From positions 5,389 through 69,388 of the forward strand of contig CBFDCV010000001.1 in NCBI GenBank assembly GCA_965603395.1: a stretch of 64,000 nucleotides of DNA. The letters run 5' to 3'. The notes beneath the pieces are model-generated. The model was given only the letters and a program-made list of their open reading frames with translations, had not been told where the DNA came from and did not search any database. Both the position numbers and the translations under genes were made by a program. The number at the start of each line of letters is the position of its first letter. Position 1 is the first letter of the stretch. Source of the DNA: an uncultured candidate division WWE3 bacterium (GTDB lineage: Bacteria; Patescibacteriota; WWE3; UBA101185; UBA10185). This document shows positions 27,478-53,623 of the stretch, piece after piece.

Positions 27478-29392
27478 GCTCTAGGTTATCAAGAAAATCG
27501 TCCACGTTTTGGTTGCTCTTATAGGGATCTGTATAGTAACCCACATTTTCTATTAATTCTTGTGGGATCTCTAGTAAAAACCGGCTGGGAAGATTGCTTT
27601 GGCGGGTACCAAAGTACATTCGATTATAGGCTCTGGTTAGATACACCTGTTTCTTTGCCCTAGTTAGAGCCACATAACAAAGTCTTCTTTCTTCCTCCAT
27701 CTCGTCTTTCTCCATGATAGAATTGGCGTGCGGAAATAAACCCTCTTCCATACCAACCACAAAAACCACGGGAAATTCCAAACCCTTGGAAGCGTGAACA
27801 GTCATCAACGTAACCGATTCATAAATATCAGGGTTTGCTTTGTTTGAGCTTTCTATCAGCGCTACGTTTTCCAGAAAATCTTCTAAGTTGACAAACTGCT
27901 GAGCCACGGACCTGAGCTCTTTTATGTTTTCTATCCTGAACTTTCCTTCATCCGAACCATCGTCCAACCATTTTATGTAGCCCGTATCTTCCAGCAACAT
28001 TTCCATAAGCTCTAAGGTTGATTTACTTTCTTTTTCTTGCAACCATTTGGTAACAGGTAGTCCTGACTTTTGTTCTATGCTACCAATGTCCCAATTAGTT
28101 TCCTTTAAAATCTCCACACTTTTTTGCCCGATTTTTCTTGGTGGCACATTAATGATCCTCTCCCACGATATGCTGTCCTTAGGATTGTGAATCACTCTCA
28201 AATACGCAATTACGTCTTTTATTTCTTTCCTTGAATAAAATCTTAGGCCGCCCACAATTTTGTAAGGTATGTTGTTTTTAATAAAGTGTTCTTCCAAGTT
28301 TCTTGATTGAGCGTTTGTTCTGTAAAGTACAGCTATTTCTTTGTAAGCCACGTCTTCTTGACGTTTTTGCAATACTTTTTCAGCTACAAACTGTGCCTCT
28401 TCAAATTCTGATAATCCGGTAAAGTTGGTAATTTTTTCTCCTCCCTCTTGGTCCGTCCAAAGATCTAAAGGTATGTATGTTGAGTTGTTTTTTATGACGT
28501 TTTTAGCTGCATCTAAAATGTTTTGTGTGGATCGGTAATTTCTTTCCAGGTTATAAACTTTCACATCAGAGTAGTCATTTTGGAAGTGTAGTATGTTTCT
28601 GTAATCAGCCCCTCTAAACCCATAAATAGCCTGTGACATATCTCCCACTACATATAGATTTTTATGTTTTTGGGCCAAAAGTTTTGTTAGAACGTATTGT
28701 GCACGATTAGTATCCTGGTATTCATCAACCAGTAAATATTTAAACTGGTCTTGAAATTTTTCCAACACTCGCGGTTCCTTTCTAAAAAGGTTTACAGTTT
28801 CGAACAATAAATCATCAAAGTCCAAAGCATTGTTTTCTCTTATACGTTTTTGGTACTCGCGGTAGATCTTGGCTACACTTCTTTGAAAGTACCCTTGTAC
28901 AAATGTTTCGTAAGTTTCTGCATCGATTAGCTCTGATTTTGCACTAGAAATCATAGCGTGCACGGCACGTGGTTTGATCTTTTTGATATCCATACCAAAA
29001 TCTTTAATTATTTGTTTGGTGAGAGAAATGGAGTCGTCCTGATCGTAAATTACATAAGAAATGGGAATTCCTAGATAAAAACCGTGTTTTCTTAGGATAC
29101 GGGCACAAATGGAGTGAAAAGTACCGCTCCAAGCCAGTTTTTGGTCTTTACCTAACAGTTTGTGCACACGTCCTTGTACTTCCTTGGCCGCTTTATTAGT
29201 AAAGGTTACACACAAAATTTCTTCTTGGCCTATGCCGTGTTCTGTTATTAAGTAAGCAACCCTGTGTGTCAAAACCCTAGTCTTACCGCTTCCCGGCCCC
29301 GCCACTACTAAAGCGGGCCCATCTAAATGCTTAACGGCCTCTATTTGCTGAGAATTTAAGTCTTTGAGAATCTTTGGGTTTTGTTCTGGCAC
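27449..29392 (-). CDS. pcrA: UvrD/PcrA-family ATP-dependent DNA helicase
   Basis: Walker A 'AGPGSGKTRVL', 'LVDEYQDTN', 'GDMSQAIYGFRGA', 'VTLMTVHASKGLEF'. 647 aa with no nuclease domain. Confidence 0.85.
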   Translation of the reverse strand: MPEQNPKILKDLNSQQIEAVKHLDGPALVVAGPGSGKTRVLTHRVAYLITEHGIGQEEILCVTFTNKAAKEVQGRVHKLLGKDQKLAWSGTFHSICARILRKHGFYLGIPISYVIYDQDDSISLTKQIIKDFGMDIKKIKPRAVHAMISSAKSELIDAETYETFVQGYFQRSVAKIYREYQKRIRENNALDFDDLLFETVNLFRKEPRVLEKFQDQFKYLLVDEYQDTNRAQYVLTKLLAQKHKNLYVVGDMSQAIYGFRGADYRNILHFQNDYSDVKVYNLERNYRSTQNILDAAKNVIKNNSTYIPLDLWTDQEGGEKITNFTGLSEFEEAQFVAEKVLQKRQEDVAYKEIAVLYRTNAQSRNLEEHFIKNNIPYKIVGGLRFYSRKEIKDVIAYLRVIHNPKDSISWERIINVPPRKIGQKSVEILKETNWDIGSIEQKSGLPVTKWLQEKESKSTLELMEMLLEDTGYIKWLDDGSDEGKFRIENIKELRSVAQQFVNLEDFLENVALIESSNKANPDIYESVTLMTVHASKGLEFPVVFVVGMEEGLFPHANSIMEKDEMEEERRLCYVALTRAKKQVYLTRAYNRMYFGTRQSNLPSRFLLEIPQELIENVGYYTDPYKSNQNVDDFLDNLELDRRNFSWE

Positions 29393-29460
29393 AGAAATAT
29401 TTTAGCACGGATAAAAATTATGTTTGATTAGATTGATTTTTTACCTTATTATTTCTGTGT

Positions 29461-29796
29461 ATGAAATTTCTAATCAAGCTTCTCATAGCTACACTGGCTG
29501 TATTTTTAAGTGCTTATTTAATTCCCGGTGTGTCCGTAGATGGTTTTCAAACTGCGTTTATAGTGGCCATTGTCTTAGGCGTACTAAATGTGTTTTTAAA
29601 ACCTCTGCTTGTATTGCTAACTCTTCCGGTTACCTTACTCACCTTGGGACTGTTTTCTTTTGTGATAAACATAGCTCTTATTTACTTGGCTGCTTACATC
29701 GTGCCCGGATTCAACGTAGCTACTATACTGGCCGCACTCCTTTTTGGCTTACTGGTATCACTAATAAGCTCATTTCTTAACTTGCTGGCTAAATAA
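29461..29796 (+). CDS. DUF360 / phage-holin-superfamily-IV-like small membrane protein (YvlD family)
   Basis: 111 aa with 4 TM helices and the pattern '...GVSVDGF..A.I.A.VLG.LN...KPLL..LTLPVTLLTLGLFSFVINIAL'. Confidence 0.45.
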   Translation: MKFLIKLLIATLAVFLSAYLIPGVSVDGFQTAFIVAIVLGVLNVFLKPLLVLLTLPVTLLTLGLFSFVINIALIYLAAYIVPGFNVATILAALLFGLLVSLISSFLNLLAK

Positions 29797-29863
29797 AAGC
29801 GGTTAGGTTTGTCTGGTGTGGTAATATATCTTTTGTAGCAATTTCCTCGGAGATTTTAAAGAT

Positions 29864-30130
29864 ATGCTAACTCTAATAGATTTTTATGCGGACTGGTGCG
29901 GTCCCTGCAAAATTATGGAACCCATATTTACCGACATAAAAAAAGATTATGAAGGTAAAGTCACTTTTAAAAAAGTGGATGTAGAGGCAAACTCTGCTGA
30001 AGCCGGCAAGTACAGTGTCATGGGTATTCCTACTTTCGTTTTATTAAAAGGTGAAGAAGAAGTATCCAGAAAAGTCGGTGCTGTGCCAAAAGACATTTTA
30101 ACAAATTGGCTTGATTCTAACCTTAAATAA
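29864..30130 (+). CDS. trxA: Thioredoxin (short, 88 aa)
   Basis: 'WCGPCK' active site and thioredoxin-fold sequence. There is no in-frame upstream start, so it is genuinely N-terminally short. Confidence 0.85.
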   Translation: MLTLIDFYADWCGPCKIMEPIFTDIKKDYEGKVTFKKVDVEANSAEAGKYSVMGIPTFVLLKGEEEVSRKVGAVPKDILTNWLDSNLK

Positions 30131-30157
30131 TTTCTTAAAAAAGTATACAATTAGATC

Positions 30158-31168
30158 ATGTCTATAAAAATTGCTATAAATGGGTTTGGCCGAATTGGCC
30201 GTGCAGCTTATAAAATTGTGCAGGACCGCGACGATTTTGAAGTCGTTGCTGTCAATGATCTCACTAACCCTCAAACACTCCTCCATCTCTTAAAATATGA
30301 TACTGCCTATGGTAAATATGAAAGGACATGCAGTATAGAGGAAGGGTTTTTGGTAACAGATGGAAAAAAATCTAAGTTTTTAAATCAAAAGGTGCCTGCT
30401 GAACTTCCCTGGTCCGAACTTGGCATTGACGTGGTTTTGGAATGCACCGGATTTTTCGTGAAAGATGGAGCTTCTAAAGCGCACCTGGAAGCCGGAGCCA
30501 AAAGTGTAGTAGTTTCTGCTCCCACCAAGGGTAGCGATGATATAAAAATATATTTAAAAGGGGTCAACGAAGACGCTTACCAGGGCGATAATGTAATTTC
30601 CAACGCCTCTTGTACTACCAACTGCATTGCACCCACTATTTCAGTTATTCATAAAGCCTTAGGTGTTAAAAAGGCCGGACTTACCACCATTCATGCTATA
30701 ACCTCAACTCAAAAATTGGTAGATAGCCCCGATAAAGACTTAAGACGCGCCAGAGCCGCCGGCTACAATATGATACCTACTACCACCGGAGCGGCCATAG
30801 CCACTACTAAAGCTATGCCCGATCTAGAAGGCAAATTTGATGGCCTCGCTATTAGAGTTCCTATCTTGGTAGGCTCTCTGTCTGACATCACCATGCTGGT
30901 AGAAAAACCAACCACCGTAGAGGAAATCAACCAGCTATACGTTAACGCCAAAGAGAGCCCTCTCTACAAAGGAATCTTGGAAACAACTACAGAACCTATC
31001 GTTTCAAGTGATGTTGTTAAAACTCCTTACTCTGCCATTGTTGATCTAGGTATGACCAGAGTAATAGATGGTGATCTTGTGAAAGTTCTAGCTTGGTATG
31101 ACAACGAGTGGGGCTACAGCCATAGACTAATCGATATGGCCGCAGTTTTAGCCTCCCAACTGACCTAA
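30158..31168 (+). CDS. gap: Glyceraldehyde-3-phosphate dehydrogenase, type I
   Basis: 'KIAINGFGRIGR' NAD motif, 'ASCTTNCIAP' catalytic Cys, and 'WYDNEWGYS'. Confidence 0.95.
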   Translation: MSIKIAINGFGRIGRAAYKIVQDRDDFEVVAVNDLTNPQTLLHLLKYDTAYGKYERTCSIEEGFLVTDGKKSKFLNQKVPAELPWSELGIDVVLECTGFFVKDGASKAHLEAGAKSVVVSAPTKGSDDIKIYLKGVNEDAYQGDNVISNASCTTNCIAPTISVIHKALGVKKAGLTTIHAITSTQKLVDSPDKDLRRARAAGYNMIPTTTGAAIATTKAMPDLEGKFDGLAIRVPILVGSLSDITMLVEKPTTVEEINQLYVNAKESPLYKGILETTTEPIVSSDVVKTPYSAIVDLGMTRVIDGDLVKVLAWYDNEWGYSHRLIDMAAVLASQLT

Positions 31169-31213
31169 AAACTTCGTCCTAACCTGTGTTAACGTGATAA
31201 AATAGCTCCATCA

Positions 31214-31483
31214 ATGGCTAAAAATCTTAAAGTATCTTTTCCTCAAAAATGCATAGGATGTGAAGTTTGCGTCTTTGAAGCTCAAAGGCAGTTAAAAAAA
31301 GTTGGTTTAGAAGGCTCGCTGATTAGAATTTTTCGAAACAAAAAAGAAGACAAGGAATTTTTGGAGTACTCCATAGACATAGAACCCCGTTTGAATAAAC
31401 TTGATATTGAAGCCATTAAAAATATGTGCCCAACGGAAGTGTTTGAAGTTGTGGAAGAAGAAAACGATGGACTTATCGAGTAA
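31214..31483 (+). CDS. Small 4Fe-4S ferredoxin-like protein
   Basis: 'CIGCEVCV' (CxxCxxC) plus a distal 'CP' in 89 aa. It overlaps the start of the next gene by 17 nt. Confidence 0.5.
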   Translation: MAKNLKVSFPQKCIGCEVCVFEAQRQLKKVGLEGSLIRIFRNKKEDKEFLEYSIDIEPRLNKLDIEAIKNMCPTEVFEVVEEENDGLIE

Positions 31484-32309
31484 AAAAATACTTTTCATCA
31501 ACCTGGGTGAAAAAACTTCGGAAGTTAAAACATTTCCTGATCTACATAAATACATTGGTGGCGTTGCGCTGGGCCTAAGACTATACGAACTGCATAAGGA
31601 TCAGGATCCCGTAATCTTTTCCGTTGGTCCCCTAAATGGTATGTTTCCATACGTCTCAAAAACTTCCGTTGTATTCAACCTGGAGGGCGTCATGGAAGAT
31701 ATTTATTTTGGTGGTTACTTATCCACTAGAATAAAGTTCGCCGATATTGACTCCATAGTAATCTACGGAAAATCCGCTGAGCCTGTGATATTAGATCTTC
31801 ACAACGATTCTGTTTCTTTCAAGTCCGCTGATACAGTTGCGGGATCCCTGGGTCTTCCCGGAAAAAGAAGTTTCTTATCATATCAAGAAAAAGCTATGGT
31901 TTTAGATGACTATTTTACAGTACCTGATAACTTATTGAATAAAAAATTTGATAAAAATGGTTTAGCCGGTTTAACTGTTACAGGAACATGTACTTTTACA
32001 CCGAAGGATCTGGACAAATATGAATCTCTCTACAAAGAATTGGTGGGTAAAACTTTAGATATTAGAGTTGAGAAAGGGTTTTTCCCGTCTTGCTCCGGCT
32101 GCCCTATGGGCTGTGCAAAGTCCAATGTGGGTGAAATTGGGGGAAATGTACTAGCACATAGCATGGTAGCATGTGAATTTGCCGAAGATATTTATACAGA
32201 TGTGGGAACAGTCTTTTCGTGCTTAAATATATTAGGGTATGATTATACGCACGAAGATATTGAAAATCTTCCCGTACTTGTTCAAAATACTCTAAAAAGC
32301 TTGAGCTAA
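31467..32309 (+). CDS. Aldehyde:ferredoxin oxidoreductase (AOR/GAPOR) family protein, truncated. It has the N-domain plus the CxxCxxxC Fe-S motif but lacks the tungstopterin-binding domains.
   Basis: Pattern matches the AOR N-domain: 'ILFINLGE...YIGGVALGLRLY...DPVIFSVGPLNGMFPYVSKTSVV...GGYLSTRIKFADIDSIVIYGKSAEPV'. It then has 'CSGCPMGC' (the AOR CxxCPxGC cluster ligands) and 'SCLNILGYDY'. Only about 281 aa, against about 600 for AORs. Confidence 0.5.
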   Translation: MDLSSKKILFINLGEKTSEVKTFPDLHKYIGGVALGLRLYELHKDQDPVIFSVGPLNGMFPYVSKTSVVFNLEGVMEDIYFGGYLSTRIKFADIDSIVIYGKSAEPVILDLHNDSVSFKSADTVAGSLGLPGKRSFLSYQEKAMVLDDYFTVPDNLLNKKFDKNGLAGLTVTGTCTFTPKDLDKYESLYKELVGKTLDIRVEKGFFPSCSGCPMGCAKSNVGEIGGNVLAHSMVACEFAEDIYTDVGTVFSCLNILGYDYTHEDIENLPVLVQNTLKSLS

Positions 32310-32310
32310 C

Positions 32311-32967
32311 ATGAAATATATTATTGCTAATTGGAAAATGAATATGAATCTGCACGAGATTGAGAAGTGGCTATCCCAATTTACCTCTTTGCTAGAAGGA
32401 AAAAGCTTTAAAAACAAAGTCGTGTTGGCTGCTTCTTTCCCCCACCTTAAGTATGTGTCTGATTTCTGCTCCTTACACAACATAACTTGCTCTGCTCAAG
32501 ACATATCTTTTTACGAAAAGGGGGCACATACCGGGGATGTTGGCGCCTTTCAACTTAGAGAAATATGCCAGTTTAGTATTGTCGGCCACAGCGAAAGAGA
32601 GGAATCAAAAAACATGGTTAAGGAAAAACGCGGTGCTTGTATCAACCACAATATTACACCTATTGTATGCTTTACAAAAATAGAAGAATGGTCACAAAAC
32701 ATTGTAAAGGGAGCATTACTTGCCTGGGAAGATCCTGAAAACATTTCCAAAGGAGGTGTGTACAAAGAAAAGAATCCTTCTGATATTGAACAGTCTTATG
32801 ACTATTTTATGCAGCAGTCGCCCCAAACACCAGTGATTTATGGGGGATCTGTGCATAGGCGAAATGCACCTCATTTAGCTAAAATCCCTAATGTGGGCGG
32901 TGTTTTGATTGGAAATGCAAGCCTAGACCCCCAACATTTCATGGATATAATTTCTGCCTTTGAGTAA
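32311..32967 (+). CDS. tpiA: Triosephosphate isomerase (compact, 218 aa)
   Basis: 'IIANWKMN', 'VGHSERE', 'VIYGGSV' are TIM signatures. Confidence 0.8.
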   Translation: MKYIIANWKMNMNLHEIEKWLSQFTSLLEGKSFKNKVVLAASFPHLKYVSDFCSLHNITCSAQDISFYEKGAHTGDVGAFQLREICQFSIVGHSEREESKNMVKEKRGACINHNITPIVCFTKIEEWSQNIVKGALLAWEDPENISKGGVYKEKNPSDIEQSYDYFMQQSPQTPVIYGGSVHRRNAPHLAKIPNVGGVLIGNASLDPQHFMDIISAFE

Positions 32968-34044
32968 ATGACCTACATTGACGTTAAGATAAAAAAGAAA
33001 AAAGAAAAGAAGAAAAATCTATTGTGGTTAAAGATGTTGATAGCATTTTTGTTTCTCGGTTTGTTGATTGGCGGTGGTGTGGTTTTGGCAAAAAAGGGTG
33101 CTAAGTGGTTTGACCCAATCTCAATTGTTGCCACTGTCTCTGCATCTAATTTAAAAGAAACTGATGGAAGAACCAACGTACTCATCTTGGGATCTGATAG
33201 AAGAGCTGCCGGTACTGTTGAATCTGAGCTTACCGACACTCTTCTTCTTATGTCCATCGGCAGAGTGGAGCATGACGTGGTATTAATCTCTCTTCCTAGA
33301 GATCTTTGGGTGGAAGATCCACGTGGTGCAAAATCAAAAATAAATGCTGTTTACACACTCAATAAAGAAGATGGTACCGACACTATTACCGGTGGTGATG
33401 CCTTGATGAATGTGGCTAAAGAGGTATTAGGTGTTTCTATCCACTATTATTCAGTTATAAATTTTGAACTTTTCAGAGAGATTATTGATATTTTAGGTGG
33501 TATAGATGTTGAAGTGGAAAGATCCTTCATAGATCACTACTATCCTGTGGAAGGTAAGGAAAATGCTCCCGAGAACGAGAGGTATGAAACTGTAGCTTTT
33601 GACAAGGGCGTACAAACCATGAACGGGGAACGTGCATTAAAATATGTCCGGTCCAGAAAAGGCACCAATGGAGAAAACACCGACTTTGCCCGCTCCGAAA
33701 GACAACAGAGAGTTATTTCTGCCATAAAAAGCAAAGCTCTTTCGCTTGAAACTCTTGTCAATCCCATAAAAATAAAAGAGCTATACGAAATTTATTCCAC
33801 CCAAATTGACACTAACATCAACTTTAGTGATGTACAAAGTTTTTATCTTCTTTCTCAACAAATTGATTTTGACAGAGTTACATCCATTGTTTTAGACGAC
33901 AGAAGCGCAGCGGATGAAGGTGGTTTGTTATATGCTCCCTCTGAAACAGAGTTGTACGGTGGTGCTTACGTCTTAATACCCAAGGTTGGTGATTTCTCAC
34001 AACTACATGCCTATGTACAAAGATATTTATTTGGCCAAAAATGA
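32968..34044 (+). CDS. LytR-CpsA-Psr (LCP) family cell-wall polymer phosphotransferase
   Basis: Lys-rich N-terminus and TM, then 'NVLILGSDRR...DTLLLMSI' and 'YYSVINFELFREIIDILGGIDVEV' (the LCP core). Confidence 0.75.
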   Translation: MTYIDVKIKKKKEKKKNLLWLKMLIAFLFLGLLIGGGVVLAKKGAKWFDPISIVATVSASNLKETDGRTNVLILGSDRRAAGTVESELTDTLLLMSIGRVEHDVVLISLPRDLWVEDPRGAKSKINAVYTLNKEDGTDTITGGDALMNVAKEVLGVSIHYYSVINFELFREIIDILGGIDVEVERSFIDHYYPVEGKENAPENERYETVAFDKGVQTMNGERALKYVRSRKGTNGENTDFARSERQQRVISAIKSKALSLETLVNPIKIKELYEIYSTQIDTNINFSDVQSFYLLSQQIDFDRVTSIVLDDRSAADEGGLLYAPSETELYGGAYVLIPKVGDFSQLHAYVQRYLFGQK

Positions 34045-34742
34045 TTTATTTAGTCCACGGTGATGATTATGCAAAATCCAGAATACTAGTTATTAACCAG
34101 CAAAAAAAACTAGCCATGGGATTAAAAGTTGAAAGGGACGTAGCAGACTTTTCTCCCAGAGAACTTTACGAAACCGCTTGTTCTTTTGACATTTTTGGTA
34201 ATCCCCCTTTCATTGTTCTCAATATACCTAACACTAAAGTGGCTGAGTCTGAAGAGTATATAAAAGTAATTAAAAAAATTCCTCATGAAACAGTTTTAAT
34301 AATTTTATGTCAAAGAGAGCTGGGCCGTACCAACGCCTTTTACAAAAGCGCACCTAAGATCAAGGCTAAAGTTGCCCTAAATAACAAAGCTCAGACATCA
34401 AATATCTTTAAATTTGTTGATAGCGTATTTTTTCAGAATAAAAATTCCTCTTATGAAGAATTAGAAAAACTGACCGATGAAGGTAACGATGCTTTCTATA
34501 TACTTTCCATGCTGCTTTACGGCCTCAGAAACATAACTCATGCCAAGTTTAGTACAGTAGAGTTTGCCAAAAAAAGCAGTTTTGTGAGAGAAAAAGCTCT
34601 TATACAAGCTGAAAACTTTTCTCAACAAAACATTAGGGAGTTGTTCGATTTTATGTACGATGTGGACAAGAAACTTAAAACAGGCCTTATAAATCAGGAA
34701 ATCGCTTTAGTGTACACTATAGAGAAAATACTAAGTATTTAA
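34041..34742 (+). CDS. holA: DNA polymerase III delta subunit-like (HolA-like), compact
   Basis: 'IYLVHGDD', '...IFGNPPFIVLNIP', and the helical C-terminal domain pattern of the clamp-loader delta subunit. Weak, pattern-level only. Confidence 0.4.
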   Translation: MIYLVHGDDYAKSRILVINQQKKLAMGLKVERDVADFSPRELYETACSFDIFGNPPFIVLNIPNTKVAESEEYIKVIKKIPHETVLIILCQRELGRTNAFYKSAPKIKAKVALNNKAQTSNIFKFVDSVFFQNKNSSYEELEKLTDEGNDAFYILSMLLYGLRNITHAKFSTVEFAKKSSFVREKALIQAENFSQQNIRELFDFMYDVDKKLKTGLINQEIALVYTIEKILSI

Positions 34743-34747
34743 AACTT

Positions 34748-35506
34748 ATGGAAAAAAAGGTTTACATAAAAGATGAAAGTTTCGATCCTATTTACAATGA
34801 GGTCAGTAAGGGCTTTTACGCTAAGACCAGGATGTTGCCTTCCTTGCTTTTCTTTTCCGGTATGTTCGTATTTGCTACCCAAGTTTTACTTCCAATATTA
34901 GTTTTTAAAACCCACGATGAATCCATTGAACTATTAGACAATAGTACTGTGTTGGGAAGAGCTGCCGGCTTTTATAACTTTCAGTTTGATGAGCTGGAAG
35001 AGCTTAGTCAAAAGGAAAATGTTTTTGAGAACACACAAGTATTAGGAACTTCAAATGAAAATGGTGCTACAAATGTACCCGATTATTTTTATCTCTCCAT
35101 ACCAAAATTAAAAATAAAGGATGCTTTAGTAGAAACTAACTCTGAGAGTTTAAATCCTTCTTCTGCCCTTGGTCACTATCCGGGAACCTCTCTTCCGGGA
35201 GAAAACGGAAATGCCTTCATCTACGGACACTCTGTTCTCCCCTGGTTTTTTAACACCAATAACTATAAAACACTCTTCTCTACCTTGGGAAAGCTTGAGC
35301 CCGGTGATGAGTTCTACATCACATATAACAACAGATCGTATACCTACGTGGTAGAAACAACAGAGGAGCTCTCCCCTTCAGAAGTTAAGCCCTTAGATGA
35401 GATAAAACCAAAATATCTGAATGAGTCCACTGTTGTTCTCATGACTTGCTCACCTCCGGGAACAAAGCTCAAAAGGTTACTTATAAATGGGATATTGGTG
35501 GATTAA
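34748..35506 (+). CDS. Sortase (transpeptidase), membrane-anchored
   Basis: N-terminal TM, catalytic His 'FIYGHSV', catalytic Cys 'VVLMTCSPPG' (TLxTC-like) and a downstream R. Confidence 0.7.
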   Translation: MEKKVYIKDESFDPIYNEVSKGFYAKTRMLPSLLFFSGMFVFATQVLLPILVFKTHDESIELLDNSTVLGRAAGFYNFQFDELEELSQKENVFENTQVLGTSNENGATNVPDYFYLSIPKLKIKDALVETNSESLNPSSALGHYPGTSLPGENGNAFIYGHSVLPWFFNTNNYKTLFSTLGKLEPGDEFYITYNNRSYTYVVETTEELSPSEVKPLDEIKPKYLNESTVVLMTCSPPGTKLKRLLINGILVD

Positions 35507-36057
35507 TCAAGATCGTCCAAAACGTCTTTTTCGAAGTTGTATAAAGCAATATTTCTTGGTCCTATAAACATTACGTATGCCGCAAACCCCAGTATTACCA
35601 AGGTAAGAACTATGCCCATCGTCGGCCCTGAAATTCCTGTATCGGGAACTGTTGATTGCGCTGTTTCTGTGGCATCGCTTGTGCTTTCTGTAGCTACCAT
35701 GGTAGCGGTGTCTGCTGTGTCCGAACCTGCTAGTACCTGTCTTTGAGGTATATTATCCATTTTTTGATTTGCCAATTCTTCAAACACACTGGCTTTCTCT
35801 TCCTCAACGCCCTCACTTACATCCACCGGTATTTCCTCCGCTCTAACATCAGCTTCCCCCAAAGTGGCTGTTTCTAAATCCTCGTCTAGGGAAACAGGCG
35901 CTTTGAGGCTGCTGCTGATTTCGTTTTTTTCAACATATGAGGTTTCTTCCTGTTCATTATTTATAATGTAATATATAGCACTAAAAACAATTAGCGATAT
36001 CGCTAACGTTAGTATGAAAGTTTTAAATCCTTTTGTTGCTTGAGTTTTAGAATTCAT
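35503..36057 (-). CDS. Acidic surface protein with an N-terminal signal/anchor and a C-terminal 'VPDTG'+TM sorting-signal-like segment (candidate sortase substrate)
   Basis: '...STVPDTGISGPTMGIVLTLVILGFAAYVMFIGPRN...' is a pentapeptide followed by a hydrophobic helix. The gene is convergent with, and overlaps, the sortase gene. Confidence 0.35.
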   Translation of the reverse strand: MNSKTQATKGFKTFILTLAISLIVFSAIYYIINNEQEETSYVEKNEISSSLKAPVSLDEDLETATLGEADVRAEEIPVDVSEGVEEEKASVFEELANQKMDNIPQRQVLAGSDTADTATMVATESTSDATETAQSTVPDTGISGPTMGIVLTLVILGFAAYVMFIGPRNIALYNFEKDVLDDLD

Positions 36058-36235
36058 AGGCAGGCTTAAATTCCTGTTTTAGAAATTCAAGATCCAAATC
36101 TTCCCCGGACATTATCGCTTTTTCTAAAAATTGATAACTTACGTACCTCTCCTCCGAAAATGTCCTCGCACCAGCTCCTATCCATAATATAACAATTAAC
36201 AATAAAATTAACAATATAATAATAATTTTTCTCAT
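36047..36235 (-). CDS. Small bitopic membrane protein
   Basis: 62 aa with one N-terminal TM helix. It lies in an operon with the neighbouring membrane-protein genes. Confidence 0.25.
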   Translation of the reverse strand: MRKIIIILLILLLIVILWIGAGARTFSEERYVSYQFLEKAIMSGEDLDLEFLKQEFKPAYEF

Positions 36236-46321: not shown

Positions 46322-46723
46322 ATGAATAATCTGCCACCGGATCCCAATCAACCAATCTCTTCTCCTATTGATCCCGGTTCTTCGGGCTCTACTATTAAAG
46401 GTTCTGAAGGCGGTGTTTTTCCGGAAAGTGCTTCTGTGCCTGAAACGCCGTCATCTCCTGAAACTCAAACTTCCCCGGAGATCCAAAAATTACCGGAAAA
46501 ATTAACGGGACCCATACCGAAAACCGCACAAGCCGCCCCTCCTTTAGAAGTTCCAAAAAACGGCGCCGTTGAGCCTACTCAAATACCAAACATAGTGGAC
46601 AAAACAGACCAGCTAACCACCTTGCATGAGATCAAAGCGCCTAAAGACAAGCTAACCGAAGAGGCCGACGAAGAAGAGGAACATTTTATCGAGGAGGTTG
46701 AAAAGCACCATGGAGACCTTTGA
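46322..46723 (+). CDS. Pro/Ser/Glu-rich low-complexity protein
   Basis: 133 aa with no TM. It overlaps the start of the next gene by 26 nt. Coding status uncertain. Confidence 0.25.
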   Translation: MNNLPPDPNQPISSPIDPGSSGSTIKGSEGGVFPESASVPETPSSPETQTSPEIQKLPEKLTGPIPKTAQAAPPLEVPKNGAVEPTQIPNIVDKTDQLTTLHEIKAPKDKLTEEADEEEEHFIEEVEKHHGDL

Positions 46724-49142
46724 CGTGGTTTTCGATTCATTTTGGACTGTTCTCTATTTGATCATTCTCATTGGACTTCTTGCCGGCTTTTTCTTAATCA
46801 TTGCTGCGGCCAAAAGAAAAAGGTCTATTAAAACGCACGAGTTTGATCTCACTTTCTTACAAATTATGCTACCTAAAGATAATGAAACTGAGGTAGACGC
46901 AGCTGAACACCTTTTTTCAAACTTAGCAGGGCTTAAAAAATCTTTTTTTAAAAGGCTTTTCACTGGAGATTTCCGTCTATCCTTTGAAATCGTATCAAAA
47001 GTGGAGGGTATAGGTTTCTATGTAGTAGTGCCCGATGAGATAGCCGGCTTTGTGGAAAAACAGATAAATGGCGTTTACCCTGACGCAGAAATCGATGTAG
47101 TTAATCCCAATGAGGTATGGGATAGAGGTAATTTCACCAAAGTATCAGAGTTCAAATTCAAAGGATACCCATACTCACCATTAAAAACTCATGAAGATAT
47201 TAAAACTGACCCCCTCAACCTTATTACCTCGTCTATGAGCAAATTGGATAAGGATGAGGTACTGGCTGTGCAGTATATCATTACGCCGGCCGGCAGCTCT
47301 TGGCGCAAAGCAGGTCAAAAGTATGTGAACGCTATCAGGTCCAAAGTTCAAGATGCAGAAAAGAAATATCATGTGGATGAGAAATATTTGGAAAAAATCG
47401 AAAAAAAGATAGCTGCTCCAGGTTTTGATACTGCTATCAGAGTAGTATCCATATCAAAAAACGCGCAAACAGCCCAGGCACATATCAACAATGTTGTGTC
47501 TACTTTTGAGCAATTTGCAGATGTAAATCACAACAAATTAGTTTTGAGAAAGTCTTTATTAAGTGGTTTACTATCAAAAAAACTTGTCGACAATTTCATC
47601 TACCGGAAAATGAGCTTGCGAGAACTTACCATCCCTCTCTTGGATCTAACTTTTTATAAAAACATGCCTGTTTTAAATACTGAGGAGTTGGCTACCGTTT
47701 TTCACTTTCCTAATAAAGATGTGCAAACCCCAAAGATTATCCGACTCACTTCCAGAAAATCAGCGGCTCCTGCCAACCTACCTACTCAAAAAGATGGTAT
47801 TTGGATTGGTGAGAGTTCCTTCAGGGGTGTTAAGACTCCTGTTTACCTGAAAGAAGAAGATCGTACCCGTCACTTTTACATTTTGGGACAAACAGGTACC
47901 GGTAAATCCGAGCTCCTAAAGTACATGGCATTACAGGATATAAAAAATGGTGAGGGCGTTGCTCTCATAGACCCTCACGGTACTGACGTACAAGACCTTC
48001 TTACAAAAATACCACCGGAAAGGGTGGACGATACTATATACTTCAATGTTTCAGATACAGGGCGCCCCATGGGCTTAAATCTTTTGGAACACCACAATGA
48101 AGAAGAGCAACATATCATCATAAATTCTTTTATCGCTTTGTTATATAAACTGTACGATCCCAATAGGCAAGGCATTATGGGACCTCAGTTAGAGAGGGCT
48201 ATAAGAAACGTCATGCTCACCGCTATGGTAGACAAACACAGCACTATAGTAGATGTCTTAAGGCTATTAATAGATGCACCTTATTCTAAAAAGTTCGTGG
48301 CTAAAGTTACTGATCCCCTGGTTAAAAAGTACTGGACCGATGAAATGGCCAAAACTTCCGACTTCCATAAAAGTGAAAAGATGGGCTACTTTGTCTCAAA
48401 GTTCGATCGGTTTGTGACTGATAAATTAATGAGAAATATATTAGGGCAACCAAAGTCTTCCTTTAATTTAGCTGATGTCATGGCTCAAAAGAAAATACTG
48501 TTGGTGGATCTTGCCAAAGGTAAAATAGGTGAAGAAAATTCCAGCTTTTTGGGACTTATACTTGTCCCCAAAATCCTTGGAGCAGCATTAGCCAGACACC
48601 GCCTGCTAGAGCAGGGCCAACCCTTCCCTAACTTTTATTTATACGTAGATGAATTCCAAAATTTTGCCACTCCTGACTTTACCACTATTCTTTCCGAAGC
48701 TAGAAAATATAAATTGAACCTTACTGTGGCCCATCAGTTCATAGAACAACTTCCGGATGACATCAGGGAAGCTGTTTTTGGAAACGTAGGATCCCTTTGT
48801 ACCTTCAGAGTTGGCGCAAATGATGCCGAGTTTCTGGAACACTACTATGAGCCCGTTTTTACAAAACAAGACATAGGAAACCTGCCTATAGGAAACGCCT
48901 ACGTCAGGCTGTTGGTTGACGGCCACCCCACCCCTCCTTTCTCCATGAACGTGCCCTGGAAAACTATCGATACTGACGTACCCAAAAACCAAGAGGTAGC
49001 AAACAAGATCAAAGAACAATCAAGATTAAAATACGGTGTGCCGGTAAAAGAGGTTGAAGAATACATTAATCTTAGAGCCGGTTTCAATGAGTCTCCCCCA
49101 GAGATAAATAAGAAACCCGAGAAAAAGAAAATCCCTTTTTAA
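46698..49142 (+). CDS. VirB4/TraC/CagE-like (FtsK-HerA superfamily) transport ATPase with an N-terminal TM helix; VirD4-like coupling protein not excluded
   Basis: Walker A 'ILGQTGTGKSELL' at about residue 395 of 814, 'ALIDPHGTD', Walker B 'LYVDEFQNF', and 'ARKYKLNLTVAHQFIEQL' (the T4SS ATPase RK...Q..QL block). Confidence 0.5.
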   Translation: MKSTMETFDVVFDSFWTVLYLIILIGLLAGFFLIIAAAKRKRSIKTHEFDLTFLQIMLPKDNETEVDAAEHLFSNLAGLKKSFFKRLFTGDFRLSFEIVSKVEGIGFYVVVPDEIAGFVEKQINGVYPDAEIDVVNPNEVWDRGNFTKVSEFKFKGYPYSPLKTHEDIKTDPLNLITSSMSKLDKDEVLAVQYIITPAGSSWRKAGQKYVNAIRSKVQDAEKKYHVDEKYLEKIEKKIAAPGFDTAIRVVSISKNAQTAQAHINNVVSTFEQFADVNHNKLVLRKSLLSGLLSKKLVDNFIYRKMSLRELTIPLLDLTFYKNMPVLNTEELATVFHFPNKDVQTPKIIRLTSRKSAAPANLPTQKDGIWIGESSFRGVKTPVYLKEEDRTRHFYILGQTGTGKSELLKYMALQDIKNGEGVALIDPHGTDVQDLLTKIPPERVDDTIYFNVSDTGRPMGLNLLEHHNEEEQHIIINSFIALLYKLYDPNRQGIMGPQLERAIRNVMLTAMVDKHSTIVDVLRLLIDAPYSKKFVAKVTDPLVKKYWTDEMAKTSDFHKSEKMGYFVSKFDRFVTDKLMRNILGQPKSSFNLADVMAQKKILLVDLAKGKIGEENSSFLGLILVPKILGAALARHRLLEQGQPFPNFYLYVDEFQNFATPDFTTILSEARKYKLNLTVAHQFIEQLPDDIREAVFGNVGSLCTFRVGANDAEFLEHYYEPVFTKQDIGNLPIGNAYVRLLVDGHPTPPFSMNVPWKTIDTDVPKNQEVANKIKEQSRLKYGVPVKEVEEYINLRAGFNESPPEINKKPEKKKIPF

Positions 49143-49191: not shown

Positions 49192-50388
49192 ATGATCAAG
49201 CTGCCATTTTTTAAAAAAGCTACTAAAAAGACACCAAAATTTATCACTTTGGATATAGGTTCGAGCGGTATTAGGTGCTTAGCTTTCTATAAAGAGGATG
49301 GAAGCCTCAAAATTATAGGCAGAGGGAATGCCGCGCTTGATGCGGGTGCCGTTAGAAACGGCGTCATTATTGATTTTGGTCCGGTTGCCGCTGCGGCTCA
49401 AGAAGCCATTGATGTTGCCACTCAAAACGCAGAGGATGTCATCAAAAATACCATTATAGGCATTAGCAGCGATGTCTGCATAGAGAACGTAACTACAGCA
49501 AAAATAACCAGGGGTTCAACTAAGCCCATTACGCTTAAAGAGGTTGAAAACTTTAACCAGAAAATTGCTGATTCCGCCACCATACAAGTACAAGATTACT
49601 ACTCCCAATTCAAAGGTGACCCGGACACCGAACTACAAATGATCACATCATCCGTAGTTTATACCAAGCTTGATGATAACAAGGTTGACACATTAGAAAA
49701 ACAAGACGGGCAATCGGTCGAAATGGCACTATATACAGCTTTTTGTCCTGTACACCATATCGAAACCGTTCAAAAACTCGGTAAAAAGTTAAAAATTAAT
49801 ATACTAGCTATAAGCCCGGTCAACTTTGCCGTGCTAAAAACGTTGAAACAAACCGAACTGGAAAGCAGTGATCTAGTTTTGATACAGGTAGGATCCGATT
49901 TTACTAATGTGGGAGTTGTCTTTGGCGGAGCCATTATTAAAAATAAAAGCCTCCATATTGGTCATAAGCATTTTACCGATGAGATCAGCCGTATCATGGG
50001 GCTGACCCAAATCGAAGCTACAAAAGTATTGCAGACTCACTCACGCGGGGCACTAAGTCCAAGTGAAAGTGTGGTGGTACAAAGCTGTTTGGAAGATGTA
50101 TTAAACCTCTGGCTTGAGGGGGTAGAGCTTCTTTTTACTGATTTTGCAGGTGTAAAGACATTTGCCCCTCACGTGTTTCTCTTCGGTGAGGGCGTACAAC
50201 TACAGGAAATCGAAGAAATGCTAGCAAAAGAGCCCTGGATGAAAAATATTCCCTTTAAGTCTCCTCCCAAAATCCAGGTCTTATCATTGGTAGATATGAA
50301 AAAGGTTGCAGACGCTACCGGCTCGGTGATTTCACAAGAATGGGTTCCTCCAGCGGCACTATCTTATATTTATGAGGAAGTAGCATGA
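49192..50388 (+). CDS. Actin-fold ATPase, FtsA-like (PilM-like not excluded)
   Basis: 'LDIGSSGIRCLAF...DGSLKIIGRGN...GAVRNGVIIDFGPVAAAAQEAIDVA' and 'LIQVGSDFTNVGVVFGGAII...LHIGHKHFTDEIS' (FtsA 1A/2A phosphate motifs). Confidence 0.55.
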   Translation: MIKLPFFKKATKKTPKFITLDIGSSGIRCLAFYKEDGSLKIIGRGNAALDAGAVRNGVIIDFGPVAAAAQEAIDVATQNAEDVIKNTIIGISSDVCIENVTTAKITRGSTKPITLKEVENFNQKIADSATIQVQDYYSQFKGDPDTELQMITSSVVYTKLDDNKVDTLEKQDGQSVEMALYTAFCPVHHIETVQKLGKKLKINILAISPVNFAVLKTLKQTELESSDLVLIQVGSDFTNVGVVFGGAIIKNKSLHIGHKHFTDEISRIMGLTQIEATKVLQTHSRGALSPSESVVVQSCLEDVLNLWLEGVELLFTDFAGVKTFAPHVFLFGEGVQLQEIEEMLAKEPWMKNIPFKSPPKIQVLSLVDMKKVADATGSVISQEWVPPAALSYIYEEVA

Positions 50389-51923
50389 CAAAACTAGAAG
50401 TGGAACTACATGAGGACGTTGTAAGCGTTCTACATAAACTAAAGGACATAAACGACACAGGTATTGAGCTTATCGTACCTGAAGGAGCGGTGCTTTTTGA
50501 CAACGTACTAAATCTCAAGCTTTTACAAAAATGGTCCGATAAAGAGGAGAAGGTTATCAACTTCCAAACCGATGATCTCAACGGCCAGAGCATGCTTATG
50601 TCGTTGGAAGATGAGGGAGTTCCGTCAGAAGAAATAATGGAAGAGGACATTAGTGCTATTGAACAAGAGGTTCCCACTCAAAAGTTTTCCATGCCTAAAG
50701 TTAAGTTAGCGCTCCCCGTTATCAAACTTAAAAAGGGTAGGGTCTTTTTTGTTTTGTTTTTGGTGTTAGCTTTTTTGGGTCTGTCCGGATTTTTTGGTTA
50801 TAAAAAAGTGGCTCAGATGCCAAAAGCCCAAGTTAAAATCATCGTTAATTCCCAACCTCTCACCCGAAGTTTTGAAATTAAAGTAAAACATAATAATGAT
50901 ACGGATGCGGAAAATAAAATTCTCAGAGGTACTACAGTAGAATCCAGCTTGGAAGACGAAGTGATCATAGAAACAACCGGAGAAAAGATAGTCGGAGAAA
51001 AAGCTGAAGGAGAAATAACCATTTTCAATAAAACAGATGAAGAAAAAAAGTTTAAAGAAGATACTGAGGTCATTTACGAAGATGATGACGATGACGAATA
51101 TGTTTACGAGCTCAAAGAAGATGTTACTGTTCCTCCCAGAGAGGAAGCATCCGACTCAACGCCCGCCGAACCCAAATACATTAGCGGAAACGCCGACGTA
51201 GAGGTTGAAGCCCAAGAAATTGGGAAAGACTACAACTTAGATGAGGGAGAAAATCTTAAAATCGAAGATCAAGATGATTCCGATTATGAAGCTGAGGTTA
51301 ATGAGGACATCGATGGTGGTAAGGAGGAAACCATCATGGTTGTGGCTCAAGAAGACATTGACGATGCTACACAAAGACTTCTTGAAAATTCCCGGGAAAA
51401 AGCCCTAAGAGCGTTGGGTGAAAAGATTAGCGGAGAACAAAAGCTAGTGGGCGGTTCTGAAAATGTAGCAATAGTAAAAGAAACATTTAGCCATGAGTTG
51501 GAAGATGAAACCGAGGAGTTAGCTCTTTCTCAAACTTTTTCTGCCAAAGGTCTTGTTTACAACCCGGATGATCTGGACAAACTTATTGAACTTCTCATGG
51601 AAGAATTCGTACCTGAAGGATTTGTTTTGTCCACCAAAGAAAGGATTGTTAATGTTGAGGTTCTAGGAAATACAGAAACCACCTTACTCTCATCCTCCGA
51701 GGCCGACCTGCAAGTTACGCTCAAAACATACGTGATAACTGATATTTCCGAAGAAACTATTAAGCAGGCTCTTATGGGAAAAAGCCCGGGAGACGCTGAA
51801 AAATATCTTGGGAGCATTAGAAACGTAAAAACGTACGAGCTGAACATAAACCCTCGCATACCGTTGTTTGATTACATTCCAAAAGACGAGTCGCGTATAG
51901 TTATCAATCTGGAAAGAGAATAG
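50385..51923 (+). CDS. Bitopic membrane protein: ~110-aa cytoplasmic N-domain, one TM, large highly acidic extracytoplasmic domain
   Basis: TM at about 'VFFVLFLVLAFLGLSGFFGY', D/E-rich runs including 'YEDDDDDEY', and a 4-nt overlap with the FtsA-like gene. No recognisable domain. Confidence 0.4.
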   Translation: MTKLEVELHEDVVSVLHKLKDINDTGIELIVPEGAVLFDNVLNLKLLQKWSDKEEKVINFQTDDLNGQSMLMSLEDEGVPSEEIMEEDISAIEQEVPTQKFSMPKVKLALPVIKLKKGRVFFVLFLVLAFLGLSGFFGYKKVAQMPKAQVKIIVNSQPLTRSFEIKVKHNNDTDAENKILRGTTVESSLEDEVIIETTGEKIVGEKAEGEITIFNKTDEEKKFKEDTEVIYEDDDDDEYVYELKEDVTVPPREEASDSTPAEPKYISGNADVEVEAQEIGKDYNLDEGENLKIEDQDDSDYEAEVNEDIDGGKEETIMVVAQEDIDDATQRLLENSREKALRALGEKISGEQKLVGGSENVAIVKETFSHELEDETEELALSQTFSAKGLVYNPDDLDKLIELLMEEFVPEGFVLSTKERIVNVEVLGNTETTLLSSSEADLQVTLKTYVITDISEETIKQALMGKSPGDAEKYLGSIRNVKTYELNINPRIPLFDYIPKDESRIVINLERE

Positions 51924-53534: not shown

Positions 53535-53552
53535 ACACCATTGCTTTATCAT

Positions 53553-53561
53553 TGTGGATAA
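53553..53561 (-). promoter_or_regulatory. Perfect DnaA box (TTATCCACA) upstream of dnaA
   Basis: Plus strand TGTGGATAA is the reverse complement of the consensus DnaA box. Confidence 0.5.
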
Positions 53562-53623
53562 CTTATGTTAAATTACTTCTGCCTCGTACTAAACCTGTCT
53601 TATTTCTGCCTTCATTTTTTAGC

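Follow-up and report, generated by a model that had tools for sequence, protein, structure and literature searches.

A conserved pair of a ferredoxin-like protein and a pterin-less derivative of aldehyde ferredoxin oxidoreductase in the glycolytic gene array of WWE3 bacteria

The 64-kb stretch of DNA analysed here (the window), which stems from an uncultured candidate division WWE3 bacterium (contig CBFDCV010000001.1), carries two overlapping plus-strand genes between those for glyceraldehyde-3-phosphate dehydrogenase (GAPDH; gap) and triosephosphate isomerase (TIM; tpiA). The first, fdx (31214..31483), encodes a single-cluster ferredoxin-like protein of 89 amino acids (aa) with the cysteines C13, C16 and C19 and a distal C72-P73. 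The second (31467..32309) encodes a 280-aa protein, here called mini-AOR, which comprises domain 1 and the [4Fe-4S] cradle of aldehyde ferredoxin oxidoreductases (AOR) without the pterin domains. Its ATG at 31467 is the start also used in the homologues and gives a 17-nt overlap with fdx; across related loci the median overlap is likewise 17 nt, which suggests translational coupling. The upstream gap gene (30158..31168, +) codes for a phosphorylating type I GAPDH with the catalytic SCTTNC motif (TIGR01534 at 384 bits, cutoff 367; Pfam Gp_dh_N and Gp_dh_C), and the 218-aa tpiA product (32311..32967, +; Pfam TIM at 1.6e-41) begins 1 nt past the mini-AOR stop codon. The original prediction, made from the letters of the sequence, had placed an overlapping ferredoxin-like and AOR-like pair between gap and tpiA, and the open reading frames (ORFs) together with the TIGR01534 and TIM matches of the flanking genes bear this out. 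The window TIM scores 86.9 bits with the bacterial model TIGR00419, under its cutoff of 130.6; some Katanobacteria TIMs have been reported to group with archaeal sequences (Jaffe et al., PMC7304191).

Residues 7-126 of the mini-AOR match Pfam AFOR_N (PF02730; E=3.6e-22, 79.5 bits, cutoff 29.8), in agreement with the predicted AOR N-domain. AFOR_C (PF01314), which full-length relatives do match, gave no match at E<=1, and the Pfam scan of the mini-AOR returned nothing besides AFOR_N. When a profile of the mini-AORs was compared with full-length AOR-family proteins, it aligned in three collinear pieces, a pattern seen in more than 20 proteins. The first piece (profile positions 2-199 on about 2-230 of the full-length proteins) corresponds to AOR domain 1, residues 1-199, encoded at 31467..32063 (+). 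The second (206-218, PSCSGCPMGC, on about 283-301) holds C209-S-G-C212-P-M-G-C216 (32091..32114, +), which aligns to residues 286-299 of Pyrococcus furiosus AOR (Pf AOR; KPCYACPIGC) and equates to its [4Fe-4S] ligands C288, C291 and C295, as had been expected from the CxxCPxGC motif. The third (228-270 on about 485-530) belongs to a segment, residues 228-280 (32148..32306, +), that corresponds to Pf AOR ~486-535 and includes C236, C252 and the stretch LGYDYTHEDIE, the equivalent of LGWDFTTEDYL (514-524) in Pf AOR. C236 (32172-32174) corresponds to Cys494, the fourth cluster ligand. In hmmsearch, positions 228-269 of the query aligned to 486-527 of a 604-aa AOR with an independent E-value of 9e-5, and the value for another target (P0165) was 1e-7.

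It is important to note that the C.N.LG.D block, which the original prediction had read as the stretch directly following the cluster motif, is thus the counterpart of Pf AOR ~510-524, some 200 residues further on. Therefore, judging from the alignments, the mini-AOR is an internal-deletion derivative and not a simple C-terminal truncation. The predicted absence of the tungstopterin domains holds true in that the C-terminal tail is gone along with some 200 residues of the interior; the notion of a protein that merely stops early does not, because the deletion is internal and the fourth cysteine is retained. A MAFFT alignment of 139 sequences (mini-AORs, 545-aa forms from the Candidate Phyla Radiation (CPR) and AORs of ~580 aa from outside it) gave the same picture independently of the profile search: a gap of 210 columns opens directly after mini-AOR residue 217, and three smaller gaps either precede the Cys motif (50 columns) or fall within the C-terminal part (35 and 51 columns).

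The residues that remain around the cluster are strictly kept. C209, C212, C216 and C236 are conserved in 87/87 mini-AORs, the first three of them in >=90% of all 139 sequences of the broad alignment, and the full cysteine pattern is present in 118 of the 120 database matches listed. In an alignment of 28 mini-AORs, C252 joins these four as a fifth invariant cysteine, and the C-terminal block FSCLNxLGYDYTHEDIE is very conserved. To place the residues known from Pf AOR (1AOR), whose sequence was taken from the HMMER alignments, we transferred positions by six pairwise alignments with full-length rows. Thr243, Glu313, Tyr427 and His448, the second-shell residues that are conserved in aldehyde-oxidising members according to a 2025 review (PMC12096430), all fall on gap columns in 87/87 mini-AORs, and D338 and D343 likewise lie inside the deleted segment. 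As far as can be read from the alignment, the mini-AOR cannot hold a tungsten or molybdenum (W/Mo) bis-pyranopterin in the way known family members do. AlphaFold2 (AF2) folded domain 1 confidently in both models that were built. With the alignment of 28 mini-AORs, residues 1-190 were confident and residues 192-280 received predicted local distance difference test (pLDDT) values of 30-47; with the 139-sequence alignment the whole chain reached a pLDDT of 95.2 and a predicted template modelling score of 0.93.

The ferredoxin-like partner shows a comparable constancy. Its pattern C13-x2-C16-x2-C19 ... C72-P73 has four invariant cysteines in a 26-sequence alignment, in which QRQ, IR and DP are further conserved features, and the CxxCxxC...CP ligand pattern occurs in 73 of 75 loci; one of the two exceptions has masked residues, and in the other CV replaces CP. 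An alanine occupies the site of the fourth Cys of dicluster ferredoxins (CxxCxxCxxxC), and by its size (<100 aa) and ligand pattern the protein would belong to the small single-cluster type. The Pfam matches are weak: Fer4 at E=0.004 and 17.3 bits, below the cutoff of 21.1, and Fer4_13 at E=0.08. The top matches of an fdx profile in the PDB were iron-sulfur (Fe-S) subunits of AOR complexes, namely WOR5-S (6x6u_B, 6x1o_B), a chain of a bifurcating AOR (9mqx_E) and AorA (8c0z_C), all of them weak and non-significant (E 0.02-0.3). To judge from these similarities, fdx is probably a reduced Fe-S subunit of the WorS type.

Both genes are widespread and well preserved. Among 5.8 billion proteins searched, there were at least 282 mini-AOR homologues. 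Among the 120 matches listed, identities range from 52 to 100% and 117 proteins measure 270-289 aa; the assemblies behind them stem from NCBI, JGI, ENA and Logan, and the names given are Patescibacteria or candidate division WWE3. When 1.84 billion representatives were searched exhaustively with a profile, 46 clusters (defined at 50% identity) were matched at E<1e-30, mostly with 270-300 aa. A scan of one genome per GTDB species yielded 74 loci, nearly all from WWE3/Katanobacteria and including the complete genome RAAC2_WWE3_1. When the window was compared with the collinear locus L089, at 86-90% amino-acid identity and with synonymous divergence (dS) near saturation, the ratios of nonsynonymous to synonymous divergence (dN/dS) were 0.054 for fdx, 0.060 for the mini-AOR, 0.053 for gap and 0.080 for tpiA. 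Despite the saturation, selection on fdx and the mini-AOR can safely be called strongly purifying. A decayed gene, as the original prediction had also considered, does not fit an intact ORF with a dN/dS of 0.060 and a constant length of ~280 aa across at least 74 species-level genomes; its other suggestion, an undescribed short AOR-family protein with its own ferredoxin, is supported by the conserved family and by the literature. Searches for WWE3, Patescibacteria or CPR together with AOR terms found no description of such forms, and neither CPR nor pterin-less forms appear in two recent reviews of the WOR family (PMC12096430, PMC13328260). To the extent that the literature could be searched, the pair is undescribed; it represents a derived, pterin-less variant and not an AOR enzyme. 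Database entries name the protein "AFOR N-terminal domain-containing protein", "hypothetical protein" or, misleadingly, "aldehyde:ferredoxin oxidoreductase" (JGI).

We then compared gene order in 76 loci including the window, annotated by phmmer and by HMMs built from the window and one related locus (L003). The fdx gene lies before the mini-AOR gene in 76/76 loci, so that the arrangement whose recurrence in relatives had been proposed as a check is indeed universal in this set. tpiA directly follows in 74 loci, the other two being contig ends. Most importantly, a PGK gene stands directly upstream of fdx in 62/76 loci (320-330 aa, 245-295 bits with Pfam PGK). The pair therefore coexists with pgk and does not replace it in a "pgk slot", as had been thought. 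In 10/76 loci gap adjoins fdx without an intervening pgk: the window, L006, L007, L008, L030, L033, L075, L032, L078 and L079. A neighbour-joining tree unites the first seven of these in one clade, with the pgk-bearing L009 as its sister, and L078 and L079 are divergent among the pgk-less loci. Read from this distribution, the normal place of the pair is between pgk and tpiA, and pgk is removed from this position in the clade of the window.

Whether the gene lies elsewhere in this clade was followed with several searches. tblastn with three CPR PGKs, run on the whole 64-kb window and on flanks of 10-21 kb from seven related loci, detected no PGK-like sequence. With a PGK of the sister lineage as database query, no match was listed on the 349-kb and 294-kb contigs that bear pgk-less operons; the closest PGK (P0365) sits in a standard pgk-bearing operon. 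PGK has been reported to be essentially universal in CPR (Jaffe et al., PMC7304191). A relocation of pgk to elsewhere in these genomes is plausible, because in about 12 WWE3 loci gap is not beside pgk within the retrieved flanks. The PGKs of WWE3 are themselves short, with 304-330 aa as compared with the typical ~390-400 aa; they match Pfam PGK in two or three stretches (245-295 bits) and are compact, with internal deletions (for example L003:4762-5733 and L027:6763-7749). In one Patescibacteria metagenome-assembled genome, in addition to the 62 loci, the place immediately before fdx and the mini-AOR gene is taken by a single 649-aa ORF with Gp_dh_N, Gp_dh_C and PGK (L048:283-2232). This ORF may be a natural fusion of GAPDH and PGK or else the product of an assembly or frameshift error. 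Among all retrieved proteins, no fusion of the mini-AOR with fdx, TIM, PGK or GAPDH was present.

The nearest longer relatives of the mini-AOR are 538-554-aa Patescibacteria proteins with both AFOR_N and AFOR_C, among them the 545-550-aa P0167, P0274, P0298 and P0164. Their genes occupy the corresponding place in the order UvrD, 3D-domain protein, trx-gap ... (pgk)-fdx(78-79 aa)-AOR(545-550 aa)-lytR-holA ... S20-MurJ (L082:7001-8644, L083:7001-8638, L087:6001-7653). In these three loci and in L080, lytR follows the AOR gene with no tpiA in between. These 545-aa CPR forms keep Thr243, Glu/Asp313 and Tyr427, and Thr replaces His448 in 25/25. The position of His448 agreed in only 4/6 guide alignments, which makes this call less secure than the one for Arg182; there, a phenylalanine is common to mini-AORs and 545-aa forms. 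The relatives from outside CPR keep both His and Arg. By these substitutions, the 545-550-aa CPR forms may already be non-catalytic. At the other end of the scale are micro forms of 198-217 aa (P0187, P0191, P0212; L081:466-1119, L088:149-745), which keep only the first ~100 residues of domain 1 and the cluster/C-terminal segment and are arranged as pgk-fdx(80 aa)-micro-tpiA-lytR; in P0212 the CxxCxxxC motif is lost. The closest relative outside CPR (L084, 31% identity) has a small dicluster Fer4 gene directly upstream and an otherwise unrelated neighbourhood.

Because the 545-aa, ~280-aa and ~200-aa forms share one syntenic position, it is reasonable to propose that they represent a stepwise reduction series. 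In this scenario a WorS+WorL pair would have been acquired first; catalytic and pterin-contact residues would have been lost next; the pterin core would then have been deleted in WWE3; and further trimming, which halved domain 1, would have taken place in another lineage. Such an ancestry is supported by the same-synteny Patescibacteria with fdx(79 aa)-AOR(545-550 aa)-LytR, by the shared change of Arg182 to Phe and by the Fer4 gene next to the relative in L084. As a separate observation, tpiA lies directly 3' of the AOR-derived gene only in lineages with a shortened protein, which hints that the insertion of tpiA and the loss of the AOR C-terminus were possibly linked.

In the window, the pair is part of a longer array that runs from trx to a sortase gene, all on the plus strand and with nearly no spacers. 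The array trx-gap-(pgk)-fdx-miniAOR-tpiA is opened by a thioredoxin gene (29864..30130, +; 88-aa ORF, with Pfam Thioredoxin on the orthologues in L001, L003 and L089), which also stands upstream of gap in most loci of the WWE3 relatives. Downstream of tpiA lie ORFs for lytR_cpsA_psr, holA (DNA polymerase III delta) and the sortase (32968..35506, +), which take their Pfam annotation from the collinear loci L001 and L089 and are constant companions of the pair. Upstream, positions 29424-29796 (+) hold two overlapping ORFs of 118 and 111 aa; the latter is the counterpart of a Phage_holin_4_2-family membrane protein in L089. Since dnaA is present at 53552-55015 (Bac_DnaA, DnaA_N, DnaA_C), the window lies near the chromosomal replication origin. 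Other housekeeping genes around it are dnaK, hrcA, adk, lepA, murJ, a MurT-like ligase gene, tsaD and a proS-like gene. A HerA/DUF87-type ATPase of 814 aa is encoded at 46698-49142, and a 512-aa ORF downstream of it (50385-51923) gave no Pfam match.

The 45-nt spacer between gap and fdx contains the motif GTGATAAAATA (31194..31204, +), 9 nt upstream of the fdx start codon. Its core TGATAAAATA is unchanged in 8/8 loci of the pgk-less clade, whereas the flanking spacer is divergent. Between the window and L089, 41 of the 45 spacer nucleotides are identical, while synonymous sites are near saturation. A copy with one mismatch, GTGCTAAAATA, lies at 29398-29408 (-), 5 nt upstream of the GTG start of a UvrD-like gene. 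From its position and conservation, GTGATAAAATA may be the extended -10 element of an internal promoter before fdx that would give rise to very short-leadered or leaderless transcripts. A scan of 29300-36200 for consensus promoters and terminators showed no enrichment over shuffled sequences and did not report the conserved spacer motif.

Compared with the large subunits of the AOR/WOR family (1AOR, FOR 1B25, WOR5/ASOR 6X1O, BamB 4Z3W), the mini-AOR shares domain 1, the four [4Fe-4S] cysteine positions and the helix after Cys494 (LG[YW]D[YF]T.ED). It differs from them by the lack of ~200 internal and ~70-85 C-terminal residues, by the undetected AFOR_C and by Phe in place of Arg182. The missing parts comprise most of domains 2 and 3, with the binding of the two pyranopterins and Thr243, Glu313, Tyr427 and His448. 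The closest known systems are the Class II WORs (WorL+WorS; P. furiosus ASOR/WOR5 and the GOR of Caldicellulosiruptor bescii; PMC13328260). There, too, the gene for a small Fe-S subunit lies directly upstream of the large-subunit gene and overlaps it, and ferredoxin-type clusters are placed to relay electrons from the cluster of the large subunit; GOR moreover has a glycolytic role, and the pair described here stands in a glycolytic array. On the other hand, the small subunit here carries a single cluster motif, as against four, and the large subunit has no pterin site. The pair is set apart from bacterial GOR by the features described, as the second-shell residues are deleted and a polyferredoxin subunit is lacking; His448, conserved in the GOR clade according to the review, is absent even from the full-length CPR relatives.

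Within CPR, the 545-550-aa and micro forms resemble the mini-AOR in synteny, with pgk and a 78-80-aa fdx ahead of them and (tpiA-)lytR-holA after them, in the R182F change and in the conserved helix LG.(D/S).(T/S)HE. The 545-aa forms differ in that the scaffold of the pterin domains is kept, His448 is lost and tpiA is not downstream, the micro forms in the loss of the second half of domain 1. Some 545-aa and some micro members have lost the cluster cysteines.

Taken together, we consider it rather more probable than any competing account, with moderate confidence, that the pair is a conserved heteromeric Fe-S electron-transfer module of WWE3/Katanobacteria that descends from a WorL/WorS-type enzyme. 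Its large subunit would have given up ~200 internal residues and the C-terminal tail while keeping domain 1 and the four-Cys [4Fe-4S] site, and its small subunit would have been reduced to one CxxCxxC...CP cluster. The two proteins would form a heterodimer with both clusters within electron-transfer distance and might act as a low-potential carrier or relay, i.e. a ferredoxin with its docking and relay subunit, that is co-expressed with lower glycolysis and presumably serves ferredoxin-dependent fermentative steps. The parts of this explanation deserve different degrees of trust. The structural and evolutionary description of the pair is very probably correct. The electron-transfer role, in turn, is a tentative assignment to which we would give slightly less than an even chance, and cluster binding, heterodimer formation and the interaction partners are likewise deduced from sequence. 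As the pterin-binding and second-shell residues are gone, oxidation of glyceraldehyde-3-phosphate (G3P) or of aldehydes by the AOR mechanism is not expected. For the complete genome RAAC2_WWE3_1, pyruvate:ferredoxin oxidoreductase (PFOR), an ADP-forming acetyl-CoA synthetase and a group 3b hydrogenase have been reported, and among the electron carriers that 2013 paper lists only 'a ferredoxin oxidoreductase-like protein' (PMC3812714). Against this background, a dedicated ferredoxin module co-expressed with glycolysis would be physiologically sensible.

Several points weigh against this explanation. The argument for electron transfer is drawn solely from the conservation of the ligands, and the resemblance of fdx to WorS is, as mentioned, statistically non-significant. 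The input of the better AF2 model included full-length AORs, and the AOR-like packing of its C-terminal part is partly inherited from them. Linkage to lytR-holA-sortase is as tight as the glycolytic linkage upstream; with such stable synteny in these genomes, the context says little about function. Finally, P0164 (550 aa, L087) and P0212 (198 aa, L088) lack the cluster cysteines and yet are still encoded behind a Cys-complete fdx. Apparently, not every lineage depends on the cluster of the AOR-like subunit, and this speaks for a structural or adaptor role. In a test for co-loss, the fdx cysteines proved to be kept where the AOR-like partner has lost its own, which lends no support to an obligatory transfer from cluster to cluster.

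The cluster-less proteins P0164 and P0212 speak in favour of the idea that the AOR-derived subunit is a non-redox pseudoenzyme, either a scaffold or adaptor for the ferredoxin or a redox- or O2-sensing regulator of neighbouring enzymes, with a structural or sensory cluster in place of an electron relay. We regard this as unlikely, although it is the strongest of the alternatives. The loss of His448 (25/25) and Arg182 in the 545-aa CPR forms preceded the domain deletion and suggests that catalysis was abandoned early, with the protein itself being kept; furthermore, the C-terminal 80 residues are the most conserved part of the mini-AOR, and the mini-specific invariant residues C252 and Y258 have no known catalytic role. 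However, four ligands that are invariant in 87/87 mini-AORs and kept in 118/120 listed matches are more than a structural remnant would need, and the Pfam scan found no DNA-binding or signalling domain in the mini-AOR.

Less probable still, and in our judgement clearly improbable, would be a gain of function, in which the pair is a new kind of Fe-S enzyme or redox switch acting directly on lower glycolysis, be it as a ferredoxin-driven thioredoxin/GAPDH reductase or by a route without the cofactor through which the pgk-less clade of the window could dispense with PGK. If true, a catalytic or regulatory function would have evolved on the exposed [4Fe-4S] face after the loss of the tungsten cofactor. 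A specific version of it, a long shot on its own, would be a ferredoxin-dependent thiol/disulfide reductase following the logic of ferredoxin:thioredoxin reductase (FTR), which would use the exposed [4Fe-4S] cluster together with Cys252 to keep thioredoxin and/or the catalytic Cys of GAPDH reduced. The thioredoxin gene at the head of the array in most loci would suit such a role, as would C252, which is mini-specific (87/87) and replaced by Ala, Ser or Val in the 545-aa forms; by the architecture of AOR, removal of the pterin domains should moreover expose the pterin-facing side of the cluster. Yet the pair resembles FTR or other disulfide reductases neither in sequence nor in fold, only one spare cysteine and no CxC or CxxC pair is available, and the linkage to trx also occurs in lineages with the 545-aa form, which is without C252. 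This proposal is purely speculative.

The original prediction had also considered a GAPOR-type remnant, and the corresponding reading is a G3P:ferredoxin oxidoreductase of the GAPOR or GOR type, or a working remnant of one, that bypasses GAPDH and PGK at the position of pgk. In its favour, an AOR-family protein and a ferredoxin lie in a gap...tpiA operon and no pgk is found within the 64 kb of the window, and a bacterial two-subunit GOR does exist in Caldicellulosiruptor (PMC12096430, PMC13328260), so that an ancestral GOR-like role of the full-length CPR form is conceivable. Archaeal GAPOR (NF040818) indeed shares with the pair the AOR family, the ferredoxin and the G3P step of glycolysis. 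It is, however, a monomeric, pterin-containing protein of ~650 aa, whereas the mini-AOR is pterin-less and paired; and GAPOR replaces GAPDH/PGK, while here a phosphorylating GAPDH is retained and PGK is usually encoded alongside, in the 62 of 76 loci given above. With the NF040818 model (GAPOR_Arch, cutoff 1300 bits), the mini-AOR had no match at E<=1, and the 545-aa relatives reached 29 bits. The pterin-binding core is deleted together with the segments of the four second-shell residues, His448 is missing even in the full-length CPR form, and the mini-AORs of pgk-less and pgk-bearing lineages have identical invariant residues. We therefore hold a GAPOR or GOR function to be very improbable. 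Least credible of all is a pseudogene in decay, or a full-length AOR that only looks short through a faulty assembly or an artefactual frameshift: the protein falls ~325 residues short of canonical AORs and AFOR_C goes undetected, but the length of 276-290 aa recurs in hundreds of independent assemblies (NCBI, JGI, ENA, Logan), the intact, constrained frame encodes a compact fold of high AF2 confidence, and tpiA, 1 nt past the stop, leaves no space for a missing C-terminal half.

For genome annotation this means that the automatic label 'aldehyde ferredoxin oxidoreductase' would lead one to ascribe the oxidation of aldehydes or G3P to these genomes in error, and that the lack of pgk in this operon should not be taken for a GAPOR bypass. 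The W/Mo pyranopterin is the defining cofactor of AOR/WOR enzymes, and WWE3 bacteria keep a version that has lost precisely the core by which this cofactor is bound. Selection on the mini-AOR is as strong as on GAPDH, and what remains is the iron-sulfur site and its partner ferredoxin. The 545-aa, ~280-aa and ~200-aa forms would represent a natural, stepwise reduction of an enzyme, first of its catalytic residues, then of a domain, then of half of domain 1, and such a series could show what the module of AOR domain 1 and cluster does alone. In the sparse fermentative metabolism of ultra-small CPR bacteria, the pair may point to an unrecognised electron carrier.

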